DNA from: a virus | Taxonomy: Duplodnaviria > Heunggongvirae > Uroviricota > Caudoviricetes | Reading direction: 5' to 3' (one strand) | DNA: 7,973 nucleotides | IMG/VR virus record: IMGVR_UViG_2645727743_000016 | Location: 1 to 7,973 of that record | Part shown: positions 3,120-6,459 of the stretch, in pieces | Position numbering within the stretch: the first letter of the stretch is position 1 | Layout of the letters: every line of letters starts with the position of its first letter | Made by a program: the position numbers and the translations under genes | The notes under the pieces: model-generated | Told to the model about the DNA's origin: nothing | Seen by the model: the letters and a program-made list of their open reading frames with translations, nothing else | Databases searched by the model: none

Positions 3120-3150
3120 TAATGCGACGAAAAACCCGCCGAAGCGGGTT
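3120..3150 (-). terminator. Rho-independent terminator downstream of hok (hok mRNA 3' hairpin)
   Basis: CCCGC-cgaa-GCGGG hairpin at 3135-3148 with AA/TT extension, followed on the minus strand by TTTTTCG. Lies about 70 nt after the hok stop. The 21-bp core (3130-3150) is identical to 2283-2303. Confidence 0.6.
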
Positions 3151-3218
3151 AAGTGCGGGTGCGTTGAGGATGCCTGACACATCAGAGGCGGCGAGGGATT
3201 TCTCCCCCGCCGGGTCTC

Positions 3219-3374
3219 TTACTCCTCAGGTTCGTAAGCTGTGAAGACAGCGACCTCCGTCTGGCCGGTTCGGATTCGTACCTCGCAGAGGTCTTTCCTC
3301 GTTACCAGTGCCGTCACTATGACGGTTAAACAGATGACGATAAGGGCGATTAACATCGCCTTTTGCTGCTTCAT
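3219..3374 (-). CDS. hokD: Hok/Gef family type I toxin (51 aa), HokD/RelF-like
   Basis: Translation MKQQKAMLIALIVICLTVIVTALVTRKDLCEVRIRTGQTEVAVFTAYEPEE matches HokD/RelF as I recall it (not searched). ATG at 3372-3374 with AAGGAG about 10 nt upstream. An in-frame upstream ATG at 3429-3431 would give a 70-codon form. Confidence 0.88.
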   Translation of the reverse strand: MKQQKAMLIALIVICLTVIVTALVTRKDLCEVRIRTGQTEVAVFTAYEPEE

Positions 3375-3633
3375 AGCCTGCTTCTCCTTGCCTTTCGGCA
3401 CGTAAGAGGCTAACCTACATGTGTTCAGCATGGATTGAGCCTCAGATTAATGTTAAGCGTCTTGCAGGACGCGTAATGTTAACTGGGGCTTTTCTCTATC
3501 TGCCTTTTGGTGTTCATGCCTGAGACAGATAGCCTCAAGCACCCACAGTCATTCTACTTAACTAAGATTTCCCTGCAAACCGTTTTTGTCCGGCACAGTA
3601 AATATCCAACTAAACCAATAGCGTTCGCTGTAT

Positions 3634-3813
3634 TTACCGCCAGTATTCAATGCACGTGACCGCCATGAACACCCCTAAAAAAAGGGCATTTATATGTCCA
3701 AACATTAATATCAAAACATCAATTTTTTCCATATACCTTGCTGTGAAGATGATGGGCATACATGATGCGAACAACCAGAACGCAACAAACAAAAACTGCA
3801 ATGCGTTTTTCAT
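3634..3813 (-). CDS. Possible small hydrophobic (membrane) protein, 59 aa, in an AT-rich island
   Basis: ATG at 3811-3813 with GGGGGA about 5 nt upstream; the ORF track's 72-aa form starts at GTG 3852. Translation is strongly hydrophobic (LQFLFVAFWLFASCMPIIF...ALFLGVFMAVTCI). AT-rich sequence gives long ORFs by chance on both strands, so the call is weak. Confidence 0.3.
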   Translation of the reverse strand: MKNALQFLFVAFWLFASCMPIIFTARYMEKIDVLILMFGHINALFLGVFMAVTCIEYWR

Positions 3814-4024
3814 TATTCCCCCTACAATCAATGTGCAATTACATTTAAACACACCTCAATTTGGCCGGACATATAAATATCTAAACCAGAAAAAATCACT
3901 TACATAGCGTTACAAACTCTTTAGTCTAAATATTCATCGTAAAACATTCCCCATACTTATCAGCCCACTCTACGCCAGGTAGCTCATTGCCTTATCTGGG
4001 AATCTGTAATCAGGTTTCCGTTTT

Positions 4025-4447
4025 TCAGTCGGCTGGTCGTTTAACCGGCATAGTTAACCCATTAATCTGGTTGCCGGATGCTGGTGGATTTTCGCGTTTT
4101 AGTTGTTCATAAAAGTGCACAGCTTTAACCAGTTCTTCTGATGTAACAGGGACTGGTGGGGCAGTGAATAAGGCCTGAATTTCATAGTTCGGCCTGTCGT
4201 TACAATCCTCTTTTTTCGGTACATATTTCCAGTCACCAACCCACAACTCCCCCTGAGAGTCCATAACACCTTTTTTCACGTAGCGATATCGCCACGCTAT
4301 CGGCTCTGCTTCCAGCGATGCCAGTGCAATTTTGAATAACTCGCCCTCTACTCGCGCCATCCCTGAATTGGGGTGGCATTTCGTAATCGCTATTTTTAAT
4401 TTGGCTTCTTCGATTAATTGTTCTTTTGTTAATTCAGTCATTTTCAT
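4025..4447 (-). CDS. Hypothetical phage protein (140 aa)
   Basis: Two in-frame ATGs at 4445-4447 and 4439-4441 (MKM), with AAAGGG about 7 nt upstream and AGGAGG further upstream. No recognisable motif. Confidence 0.6.
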   Translation of the reverse strand: MKMTELTKEQLIEEAKLKIAITKCHPNSGMARVEGELFKIALASLEAEPIAWRYRYVKKGVMDSQGELWVGDWKYVPKKEDCNDRPNYEIQALFTAPPVPVTSEELVKAVHFYEQLKRENPPASGNQINGLTMPVKRPAD

Positions 4448-4537
4448 TACCGCCCTTTCAGGCGGCCTCCTGATGTTCTGAGGGTGCAGAAATCCCTCCG
4501 GTTAAGGATTAAATTTTATTTGCTGTGCTAAATTTAA

Positions 4538-4993
4538 TTATTCAGTTTTTATTCCTGCTCTCAAAACAGCCTCTGCCATTCTGATATCCGGATTTTCTGA
4601 AATCATCTTTTCCGGCGAGTCGCAATCACCACCACATTCAGTTATGCGTTCATGACCAAAACGAATTGTGGTTTTGTGCGCATTAATCATTTGTGTAAGC
4701 GCGTCTGTCAATTCTGCAATGCGTTTATCTTTAACTTCCAGCTCTTTCAGTAAAGCCAGTACGTCAGGATCGCTAACATCAACGACGGTTACGCGCGATT
4801 TCAGGTAATGCTCATCCGCAAAAGTTCGACCAGTTTTAAAATATCCATCATCCCCCTCACCTGCGCAGGCATACACAATATGCGTTCTGGAAAATATGCG
4901 CTGTATCGACATTTCATCGCCGCAAACAGGACATTCCGGCACCTGAATTGGTGAATAACGTTCACGTAATGCCTGGTAATTAGTCTTGCACAC
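4538..4993 (-). CDS. Hypothetical phage protein (151 aa) with paired-Cys motifs and a central coiled-coil-like segment
   Basis: GTG at 4991-4993 with AGGAGA about 7 nt upstream; overlaps the upstream gene's 3' end by 14 nt. Contains ECPVCGDE and ECGGDCDSPE pairs flanking LALLKELEVKDKRIAELTDALTQMI. Family not recognised. Confidence 0.6.
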   Translation of the reverse strand: MCKTNYQALRERYSPIQVPECPVCGDEMSIQRIFSRTHIVYACAGEGDDGYFKTGRTFADEHYLKSRVTVVDVSDPDVLALLKELEVKDKRIAELTDALTQMINAHKTTIRFGHERITECGGDCDSPEKMISENPDIRMAEAVLRAGIKTE

Positions 4994-5285
4994 TGGCTGT
5001 CTCCTGAAAAATCACCGCATGCCCCAGTTTCTCCGCCAGCGCCAGTTCTGCCTTAGCGCCTGCTGACCGCTGCCAGCCTTTCAGCATGTAAATCGCATCC
5101 ACACAACGAATCATTGCCATGCAAATATCCATGTAGTGCGGCTGTGTCAGCCCGTCCGGAAGTACTGCCGGGTTTAAGACGGTATGCCCTTCCCGTTTCA
5201 GTTCCTCTTCTGCCTTGTGAAACGCCTCACGGTTGAAATTTTCATACCCCGTCATTGGACCGGCGATATAAACCCTCACCCTCAC
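4980..5285 (-). CDS. DUF4406 protein (nucleoside 2-deoxyribosyltransferase-like fold)
   Basis: N-terminal VYIAGPMTG...NFNREAF is the hallmark of DUF4406/NDT-like proteins, recognised from memory. GTG start at 5283-5285 overlaps the upstream stop as GTGA; AGGAGG lies 7 nt upstream. Confidence 0.72.
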   Translation of the reverse strand: MRVRVYIAGPMTGYENFNREAFHKAEEELKREGHTVLNPAVLPDGLTQPHYMDICMAMIRCVDAIYMLKGWQRSAGAKAELALAEKLGHAVIFQETASVQD

Positions 5286-5698
5286 GCCATCACCTCCTGA
5301 AAATTACCCTGATAAAACGCCAGCACACGCTGCATAACCTTGCTTTTCCGGCACTCGAGACAGATTATGTTCTGACGCCTGTCGTAGTGGCGTATCTCTC
5401 CATCTGGTAATGAATAAATCAGGCCAGGGTCGCTCTTCTTTTTCGCTGCACCTTTAGACATCTCTTTATGGGCTTTTATCCAGTCTTTACGTGCCTGCTC
5501 AGAAGGGAATATTCCATGCCCTGAACCATATACAACACCACTGTCTACCAGTTCTTTCGCCAGAACTTCAATCAGATGTCTCGTCGCCCCTGTTTCATTT
5601 TCCAGTTGTTTACGCGTTTTCCTACCATCTCTGCGTACCAGTTCCACAATACGCGCCTTTACTTCTTCCCGTTGTTCGGGAGTAAAAACTTTTACCAT
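5282..5698 (-). CDS. Hypothetical phage protein (138 aa), possible N-terminal winged-helix-like segment
   Basis: ATG at 5696-5698 with a strong AGGAGG 5 nt upstream. Stop overlaps the start of the DUF4406 gene. N-terminal segment TRKQLENETGATRHLIEVLAKELVDSGVV looks helix-turn-helix-like; this is inference. Confidence 0.65.
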   Translation of the reverse strand: MVKVFTPEQREEVKARIVELVRRDGRKTRKQLENETGATRHLIEVLAKELVDSGVVYGSGHGIFPSEQARKDWIKAHKEMSKGAAKKKSDPGLIYSLPDGEIRHYDRRQNIICLECRKSKVMQRVLAFYQGNFQEVMA

Positions 5699-5712
5699 AA
5701 GTCCTCCTGAAA

Positions 5713-6459
5713 TTACTTCACAACCCTCAGGTGTCTGACATTCGAACGCCAGCTCTCCCAGTTAAAATTCACCCAGCGACCACCGTTCATGACCATGCGG
5801 TCCATCACACGCTCGCCAAGAAGCGTACTCATCGCTACGTGGTTCAGGTTCGTCAGCATTCCGACACTACGCATCGAAGCCGTTCTGCGGTCGACTATCT
5901 GGTTCAGTGTGACCTGCTCGTTGCGCGTATCCCGCTGCATTCCGATTTCATCCAGGACAAGCAGGTCAACATCACACAACCCCTGTAAAAATTTTTCGCC
6001 TGAGTTTTTGTTGTCGTAGCTGTTGTGTAACGCCAGCATCACATCAGCCACCGTTATCACAATCACGCTGCGACCTTTCGCCAGAAGATGATTGCCAATG
6101 GCGGCTGCAAGGTGGTTCTTTCCGGTACCCGGCTTACCGCTGAACACAAAATTCGTGCACCCGGTCATCAGTTCGTCAGCGATGGATTTTGCCTGGCTCA
6201 GCGCATGTTTTTGCCCGTCGTTCTGCACCTGATAATTCGCAAACGAGCATTTGCTGTGCAGAGGCTGGATGCCCGAACGATTCAGGATTTTTTCCACCCG
6301 CAACTGGCGATTCTGGCGGTTGATCTCCTCGCTACGTTTTCGCCCTTCAGCCAGTTGCCACTCGCGCCACTCATCCACTGTCCGGTACGGCGCGATTACA
6401 TGCTGCGGGGTCAGCTTACGGATACGCTCAAGAACACCACCTGCCGCGATATTTTTCAT
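5713..6459 (-). CDS. DnaC/IstB-family AAA+ helicase loader (phage replication protein P analogue)
   Basis: Walker A GKPGTGKNHLAAAIG and Walker B LLVLDEIG in a 248-aa ORF. ATG at 6457-6459 with GGGGG about 10 nt upstream. Lies immediately downstream of the O-like initiator gene. Confidence 0.9.
   Translation of the reverse strand: MKNIAAGGVLERIRKLTPQHVIAPYRTVDEWREWQLAEGRKRSEEINRQNRQLRVEKILNRSGIQPLHSKCSFANYQVQNDGQKHALSQAKSIADELMTGCTNFVFSGKPGTGKNHLAAAIGNHLLAKGRSVIVITVADVMLALHNSYDNKNSGEKFLQGLCDVDLLVLDEIGMQRDTRNEQVTLNQIVDRRTASMRSVGMLTNLNHVAMSTLLGERVMDRMVMNGGRWVNFNWESWRSNVRHLRVVK

Follow-up and report, generated by a model that had tools for sequence, protein, structure and literature searches.

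Between the replication genes and the toxin genes of an Escherichia coli prophage lie four short, tightly packed genes. Do they form a unit with a shared function, or are they separate accessory genes that travel side by side? We addressed this question in the IMG/VR viral record IMGVR_UViG_2645727743_000016, of which a 7,973-nt stretch (the window) was analysed; all positions are numbered along this whole stretch. The four genes span 1674 bp and are, with high probability, independent accessory genes of the ren-nin segment of a Rac/Qin-type lambdoid prophage, making up ordinary shuffled cargo. The second gene encodes a DUF4406 protein with a fold like that of nucleoside deoxyribosyltransferases (NDTs).

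The four genes and their genomic setting

The block is made up of the following features:

5282..5698, minus strand: gene 1, DUF977 protein, 138 aa (PF06163, PHROG 142, PGAP)
4980..5285, minus strand: gene 2, DUF4406 protein, 101 aa (PF14359)
4538..4993, minus strand: gene 3, Ead/Ea22-like protein, 151 aa (PF13935)
4448..4537, minus strand: spacer of 90 nt between genes 3 and 4, a mosaic junction
4025..4447, minus strand: gene 4, hypothetical protein, 140 aa (PHROG 660)

Four successive minus-strand open reading frames (ORFs) were read directly from the strand. The TGA stop of gene 1 and the GTG start of gene 2 overlap as GTGA (5285-5282), with AGGAGG 7 nt upstream, and the GTG start of gene 3 at 4993 sits 14 nt inside gene 2 (overlap at 4980-4993), with AGGAG about 7 nt upstream. 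The window, and with it the block, is 100% identical to part of a Rac/Qin-type lambdoid prophage in the chromosome of E. coli AST85. The RefSeq/PGAP names in AST85 are 'DUF977 family protein', 'DUF4406 domain-containing protein', 'ead/Ea22-like family protein' and 'hypothetical protein'. Homologues of each of the four genes number in the hundreds, so the four ORFs are genes and not chance ORFs. The gene calls and both overlaps given by the first-pass annotation of this DNA were thereby borne out. Its statement that DUF4406 alone was recognisable did not hold, since gene 1 belongs to DUF977, gene 3 to Ead_Ea22 and gene 4 to PHROG 660. An NCBIfam scan of the four proteins gave no meaningful matches, and a search of PDB sequences with each of them found nothing significant.

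Two flanking features delimit the block:

5713..6459, minus strand: DnaC/IstB-like replication loader ATPase, directly upstream of the block (Pfam IstB_IS21, 2.6e-18; PGAP 'ATP-binding protein')
3219..3544, minus strand: hokD/mok/sok type I toxin-antitoxin locus, downstream of the block (PGAP hokD; Rfam sok RF01794)

The block is embedded in 20 kb of Rac/Qin-type lambdoid prophage DNA of E. coli. The gene order starts with integrase, excisionase, exonuclease and dicB, then a repressor, Cro and YdaT. The order continues with an O-like gene, the DnaC/IstB-like loader, the block, hokD, doc, DUF968/HNH and RusA, and after RusA come DUF1133, a DNA methyltransferase, tRNAs and the lysis genes; the DUF1133 family is seen elsewhere next to a weak Phage_antitermQ match. 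This order parallels O-P-ren-nin-Q of phage lambda, and the block occupies the ren-nin position of the early-right (pR-type) operon, which is the nin-like place that the first-pass annotation had assigned to it. As in lambda (O-P-ren-ninB..ninI-Q), the spot lies between the replication genes and the junction-resolvase/antiterminator genes and is filled by short, tightly packed, overlapping and largely dispensable genes, the first of which, after the loader gene, has the C-terminal motif of Ren. Unlike in lambda, ninB-ninI are all absent, RusA stands in for NinG and a DnaC/IstB-like loader for lambda P, and two toxin-antitoxin loci (hokD and doc) are inserted.

A consensus scan of positions 3400-5800 turned up neither a terminator on the minus strand nor more promoters than expected (2 promoter-like sites compared to 4.0 expected from shuffles). 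This result fits read-through from the early-right promoter, without proving it. We infer that the four genes would be co-transcribed by such read-through and translationally coupled where their stop and start codons overlap. A promoter or terminator inside the block that would split gene 4 from genes 1-3 was considered and rejected: the promoter-like site at 4564-4537 falls within the below-chance count, and there is no minus-strand terminator. Rfam gave a single chance-level match on the block, to the mammalian long non-coding RNA family MEG8_3.

Independent exchange of the four genes

We surveyed the four alleles in 5426 complete E. coli genomes, counting the whole block as present where at least 80% of it was covered. 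The DUF977 allele was found in 885 genomes and the DUF4406 allele in 1209, compared to 29 for the Ead allele of gene 3 and 20 for full-length gene 4; fragments of gene 4 occurred in 2332. The whole block was present in only 19. The same picture emerged from 80 IMG/VR loci chosen for a DUF4406 protein at least 91% identical to gene 2 (denominators of 62 to 79 vary by question). Here, DUF977 lay directly upstream of DUF4406 in 65/79 loci, the gene 3 allele came next after DUF4406 in 15/76, and full-length gene 4 was present in 17/63, at a distance of 390-2912 nt, genes 3 and 4 being separated by other genes in varying number. All four alleles occurred together in 9 of 62 loci.

At the level of families, the order is better kept. 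The slot after DUF4406 is taken by the Ead/Ea22 family, in four architectures, in 68/77 loci (by clustering and Pfam). The trio DUF977 - DUF4406 - Ead-like is present in 46 of 62 close E. coli/Shigella relatives, and the trio plus a downstream segment of the gene 4 family in 32-37 of the 62. What is conserved here is the order of genes among close relatives, whose alleles have been exchanged at the junctions, a pattern typical of lambdoid mosaicism. The tight packing on one strand and the family-level order in these relatives are what a co-adapted four-gene operon module would also produce. However, the allele distributions differ up to 60-fold, the complete set of alleles is rare in both surveys, the distance between genes 3 and 4 varies, and the arrangement is absent beyond close relatives; we regard such a module as extremely improbable. 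Conserved co-occurrence, on which the first-pass annotation had made its four-gene unit depend, was largely lacking.

A comparable arrangement is found in phage Rac-SA53 (lygF - rac19 - ead, KU052037). It has the same DUF977 - DUF4406 - Ead-like order with the same 4-nt and 14-nt overlaps, and the trio directly follows ydaU/ydaV/ydaW-type replication genes. Its DUF4406 protein is 93% identical to gene 2, whereas its DUF977 protein is 69% identical to gene 1, its Ead is a longer allele of 225 aa, and rac21 and rac22 take the place of gene 4. In our reading, each gene is exchanged separately, by recombination at conserved gene boundaries. Several prophages that are otherwise near-identical carry 0.8-2.4 kb of extra DNA, which separates the Ead-like gene from gene 4, or a 72-aa ORF described below from hokD (loci L033, L035, L036, L038 and others), and one O121 genome (H44) has IS600 inside the block. 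A 3-kb contig binned with a Collinsella sp. metagenome-assembled genome (L003) has a DUF977-DUF4406 pair whose genes are 68% and 94% identical to those of E. coli; it is probably a binning contaminant rather than an actinobacterial prophage.

The closest approach to a unit is the DUF977-DUF4406 pair, which might form a two-gene functional unit that travels as the last part of the replication module. A Ren-like protein that binds DNA or the replisome might, for instance, guide or control a partner that cleaves nucleotides. In the 65 loci counted above the two genes have overlapping or abutting codons, and the GTGA overlap with its Shine-Dalgarno (SD) sequence suggests translational coupling. 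In Salmonella (L196-L199) the pair is kept with a 4-nt overlap behind three types of replication module (IstB-like, lambda P-like and HTH_36), and is followed by DUF4752 and not by Ead. However, when the survey was anchored on DUF977, DUF4406 came next in 36/79 loci and was missing downstream in the other 43. The DUF977 alleles are 46-100% identical beside a near-constant DUF4406 (91-99%), which argues for recombination exactly at their junction. Ten long DUF4406 proteins (200-358 aa) scanned with Pfam contained only DUF4406, with no recognisable second domain; their additional residues are uninformative or reflect wrongly called starts.

DUF4406 also occurs without DUF977 in more distant hosts. 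In Edwardsiella and Enterobacter it lies in the early-left (pL), exo-xis-like region, with RdgC or RecT, Dam, Ead, Eai, DUF551, xis and int as neighbours. In Citrobacter it belongs to a P2/186-like phage, flanked by two DNA methylases on one side and the gpA gene on the other, and in Klebsiella and Vibrio it is found in other contexts with other neighbours. Among 145 neighbouring ORFs at 20 DUF4406 loci from other orders and phyla, DUF977 was not found; the recurrent neighbours there were DNA methylases, replication proteins, RusA, NinB, NinG, Ead and DUF551. None of the other three genes is a regular neighbour of distant DUF4406 genes. We therefore consider a two-gene functional unit unlikely, and the facultative DUF977-DUF4406 pair of E. 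coli and Salmonella is the sole association worth keeping in mind. Two points nevertheless weigh against four independently shuffled, co-transcribed genes: this pair is frequent in close E. coli/Salmonella relatives, with a 0-4 nt junction and behind three replication modules, and co-transcription is deduced solely from absent consensus terminators.

Genes 1, 3 and 4 and the flanking sequence

Gene 1 matches PF06163 over its residues 1-134 (profile 1-134 of 134; 109 bits, cutoff 22.1, E 2.5e-31) and PHROG 142, 'Ren-like exclusion protein', at 2.2e-41; PHROG 142 includes lambda Ren. Its counterpart in Rac-SA53 is named 'LygF'. BLASTP aligned gene 1 with lambda Ren (96 aa) over the C-terminal 57 aa (33% identity, E 3e-6), and hhalign of a DUF977 profile built without Ren against Ren aligned the last 24 residues/columns with 89.6% probability. 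The two proteins have in common the C-terminal motif N-(I/L)-(I/V)-x-x-E-C-R-x-S-x-x-M-x-R-V-L-A-x-Y and a second segment, T-G-A-T, within an N-terminal part that we read by eye as helix-turn-helix-like. Lambda Ren itself scores no Pfam DUF977 match, and the DUF977 profile found nothing in the PDB. Gene 1 starts 14 nt past the DnaC-like gene, and lambda ren overlaps the end of P. Because of the C-terminal match and the same position directly after the loader gene, DUF977 may be regarded as an enlarged Ren relative, with an alignment that covers only the C-terminal 24-57 residues. Gene 1 would then be a longer relative placed like ren, and any Ren-like role is deduced from this likeness. The lambda record and PHROGs label Ren an exclusion protein. 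A preprint reports that lambda ren is transcribed from pR and is 'likely involved in DNA replication', and that Rex proteins interact with O and Ren by two-hybrid (10.1101/2021.04.19.439022).

Gene 3 matches PF13935 with residues 4-105 (profile 3-90 of 139; 71.4 bits, cutoff 27, E 1.5e-19). Besides the N-terminal NYQALRE module it has a coiled coil, an inserted segment with CxxC and, over the last 45 aa, a unique sequence that contains CGGDC. PGAP starts the gene at 4942, 17 codons further in, and the 14-nt overlap is lost with that start. We prefer the longer start at 4993, since the Ead_Ea22 match begins at residue 4, the Rac-SA53 annotation has the same overlap, and NYQALRE recurs in other alleles of this slot; the RefSeq annotation is probably 17 codons too short. 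The authors of the lambda Ea22 structure state that its C-terminal domain sets it apart from its homologues (PMC10834534). Gene 3 gave no PDB sequence match to that dimeric domain, and unlike the gene for lambda Ea22 proper, which belongs to the exo-xis region, it sits in the nin region of the pR operon. It is one among many Ead/Ea22-like coiled-coil proteins.

Gene 4 matches PHROG 660 (2.4e-47) and has no match in Pfam; its PGAP start is 4441. In an alignment of homologues, the N-terminus is a hypervariable helical hairpin, the core (residues ~47-121) is essentially invariant (AWRYRY...GDWKYVP..EDCNDRP.YEIQ), and the C-terminal tail is shortened and variant relative to most homologues. This tail, ASGNQINGLTMPVKRPAD (4025-4090, minus strand), corresponds to a segment about 30 residues further on in longer homologues (P0280, P0281, P0386), past a second NPP motif, which suggests that sequence between two NPP repeats was deleted and that the protein then ends early. 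The AlphaFold2 (AF2) model of gene 4 has a predicted local distance difference test score (pLDDT) of 64, and its best Foldseek E-value against the PDB was 1.0, too poor to assign a fold. We read gene 4 as a mosaic protein. At the spacer before it, positions 406-493 of the block align with Stx2 phages at 94%, irrespective of the genes on either side. The spacer is a mosaic junction common to Stx and other lambdoid phages on its own; it holds the SD of gene 4 and one promoter-like hexamer pair, not above chance.

Downstream of the block, Rfam sok RF01794 matches at 3369-3544 (118.9 bits); its strand is that of the hokD coding sequence (3219-3374). The strand given for this 'sok' match is that of the hok mRNA leader. 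A 70-aa ORF reaching 3431 resembles mok, and the match confirms a complete hok/mok/sok locus. Two sub-threshold RNA matches are probably due to chance: an isrK-like match just downstream of hokD (3129-3210, minus strand; 26.7 bits against a gathering cutoff of 50, E 0.013) and an rsmX/istR-like match at the 3' end of doc (2281-2371). Between gene 4 and hokD lies the 72-aa ORF (3634-3852, minus strand), with two hydrophobic stretches, which PGAP leaves without annotation in the identical record. It is 92-99% identical in amino acids across many IMG/VR loci, has no Pfam match, and may be an unannotated small membrane protein.

The DUF4406 protein and its possible chemistry

Gene 2 matches PF14359 almost end to end (residues 4-93 on profile 2-91 of 91; 128.4 bits, cutoff 22, E 1.4e-37) and Pfam DUF1937 and Nuc_deoxyrib_tr weakly. 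HMMER, run exhaustively over 1.84 billion cluster representatives (50% identity; E <= 0.001), matched 12,265 of them, making DUF4406 a very large family. In an alignment of 59 diverse members, 44-60% identical to gene 2, Gly9, Phe22, Pro43, Ser74 and Glu80 are invariant (Ser74 and Glu80 each 59/59), and position 6 is Tyr in 50, Phe in 7 and another residue in 2.

The AlphaFold2 model of gene 2 (mean pLDDT 91.1) has five strands and four helices and stops right after strand 5 (residues 90-93). Foldseek against the PDB placed NDTs, MilB, BcmB and DNPH1 on top, with TM-scores of 0.70-0.76 on the query; the closest structures were NDT, MilB and DUF1937. The best match was 2A0K (E 2e-5), which was also the best by profile (E 1.4e-4). 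DUF4406 has the five-stranded, flavodoxin-like alpha/beta fold common to NDT, DNPH1 and MilB, together with the Glu of the G-x-x-x-E motif and the aromatic residue after strand 1 of the NDT superfamily. On the strength of the model, we confidently assign gene 2 as a truncated, minimal member of the NDT/DNPH1/MilB-fold superfamily, in agreement with the NDT-like fold first proposed for it. PA1492/DUF1937 (PDB 1T1J), at 17% identity, is a distinct family.

A profile search of PDB sequences aligned the DUF4406 motif S-k-G-A-k-a-E with DCGTAFE of Trypanosoma brucei NDT (E 1.4e-4), with SPGTHIE of BcmB, a cytidine monophosphate (CMP) N-glycosidase (E 0.04), and with SPGTHVE of BlsM. Glu80 falls on the Glu of the S/D-x-G-x-x-x-E motif in all three. 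Ser74 falls on the Ser of BcmB and BlsM, but on the Asp of T. brucei NDT. In DNPH1, E104 is the covalent nucleophile and forms a glycosyl-enzyme intermediate, and S98, retained as S97 in MilB, is among the phosphate-coordinating residues; Y24 of DNPH1 corresponds to F17 of MilB, and this pair sets the preference for deoxyribose or ribose (PMC10603095). In NDTs proper (PF05014; L. leichmannii, T. brucei, Chroococcidiopsis), which give the best Foldseek and profile matches and likewise conserve the Y-x-A-G-P start and the catalytic Glu, the residue six before the nucleophile is an Asp that binds the nucleoside 5'-OH. DUF4406 has Ser there, as do the nucleoside monophosphate (NMP) N-glycosidases, and lacks the C-terminal region of NDTs. 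The invariant Ser74 and Glu80 thus resemble the mononucleotide N-glycosidase branch, not the nucleoside transferase branch. The first-pass annotation had asked for the catalytic residues of NDTs in DUF4406: the invariant Glu80 and a mostly Tyr or Phe position 6 were found, but the Asp is replaced by Ser74 and an invariant general-acid Asp is missing.

From the conserved residues and the model, we infer, tentatively and at somewhat less than even confidence, that gene 2 binds and probably hydrolyses a (deoxy)nucleoside 5'-monophosphate. Cleavage of the N-glycosidic bond would proceed through a covalent Glu80 intermediate with Ser74 on the phosphate, as in DNPH1/MilB/BcmB, and not by base transfer as in NDTs. 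Several observations count against this assignment. Gene 2 scores 14.3 bits against PF05014, under the gathering cutoff of 28.8. No invariant Asp is present in the DUF4406 helix that corresponds to the one carrying the general acid (DNPH1 D80, NDT D72); the candidate positions 53 (D in 22/59) and 50 (Q, E or D) vary, and it is Tyr51 that is nearly invariant. The C-terminal helix of DNPH1 reaches the site of the partner subunit and gives a second phosphate-binding serine (PMC10603095), and MilB uses Arg23 as its second phosphate ligand; the helix with the partner-subunit Ser is absent from the gene 2 model. DUF4406 is ~30-60 residues shorter than DNPH1/Rcl, MilB, BcmB and BlsM, lacks the helix that completes the partner's site, and resembles them in sequence at profile level (E 0.04-0.8). 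With no invariant Asp and no C-terminal helix, DUF4406 could be a binder or use different chemistry. Finally, literature searches on DUF4406, DUF977 and LygF returned only passing mentions and no experiment on any DUF4406 or DUF977 protein; most 'LygF' matches are unrelated papers on goose-type lysozyme or stray.

A phage precedent is DmtZ of Z-genome phages, an NDT-family deoxyadenosine monophosphate (dAMP) N-glycosidase (PMC12884076). By its description, it is likewise a phage NDT-superfamily protein that acts on a deoxynucleoside monophosphate (dNMP) and reshapes nucleotide pools. It differs in being a dAMP hydrolase/phosphodeoxyribosyltransferase of ~145 aa linked to dut and purZ in lytic phages. 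Outside E. coli, the recognisable genes most often seen beside DUF4406 encode DNA methyltransferases (Dam, Dcm, N6_N4_Mtase, Mom; L112-L115 in Enterobacter, L200-L202 in Citrobacter and the 20 distant loci), a possible hint at a link to modified-nucleotide metabolism. One might picture DUF4406 as a minimal phage NMP N-glycosidase or nucleotide binder that cleanses or reshapes the nucleotide pool, or blunts nucleotide-based immunity, possibly with the Ren-like DUF977; we hold this to be improbable. Within it, the recurrent methylase neighbours suggest that modified dNMPs from methylated DNA might be what is removed.

A role of the block, or of DUF4406 alone, in defence or anti-defence, by destroying or sequestering nucleotide-derived immune signals or by depleting nucleotides, had been called plausible in the first-pass annotation. 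We found no evidence for it and judge it very unlikely. The lone lead is the resemblance of gene 1 to lambda Ren, called an exclusion protein. Against such a role, PADLOC-DB v2 gave no significant match for any of the four proteins (only LmuB for gene 3, E 0.041), the nearest structures of gene 2 are not Toll/interleukin-1 receptor (TIR) domains, and its Ser and Glu motif is of the mononucleotide N-glycosidase type. The commonest neighbours across taxa, replication genes and DNA methylases, better fit nucleotide or DNA metabolism. A literature search on NDTs and anti-defence yielded only the PF05014 NDTs of Z-genome phages and retron-related reviews, and no support.

The block is the usual mosaic accessory cargo of the lambdoid nin region; its families are catalogued, and identical copies are annotated in RefSeq. 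What we add is the Ren relationship of gene 1, the residue argument that places DUF4406 with the mononucleotide N-glycosidases, and the quantified independent shuffling of the four genes, along with a minor correction to the start of the Ead-like gene. The DUF4406 domain is very widespread in phages and prophages and almost absent from the literature, and its invariant Ser and Glu give it a concrete biochemical handle. If true, a role of DUF4406 as a nucleotide-pool or immune-signal enzyme would be moderately interesting, the family being so widespread and so little studied.

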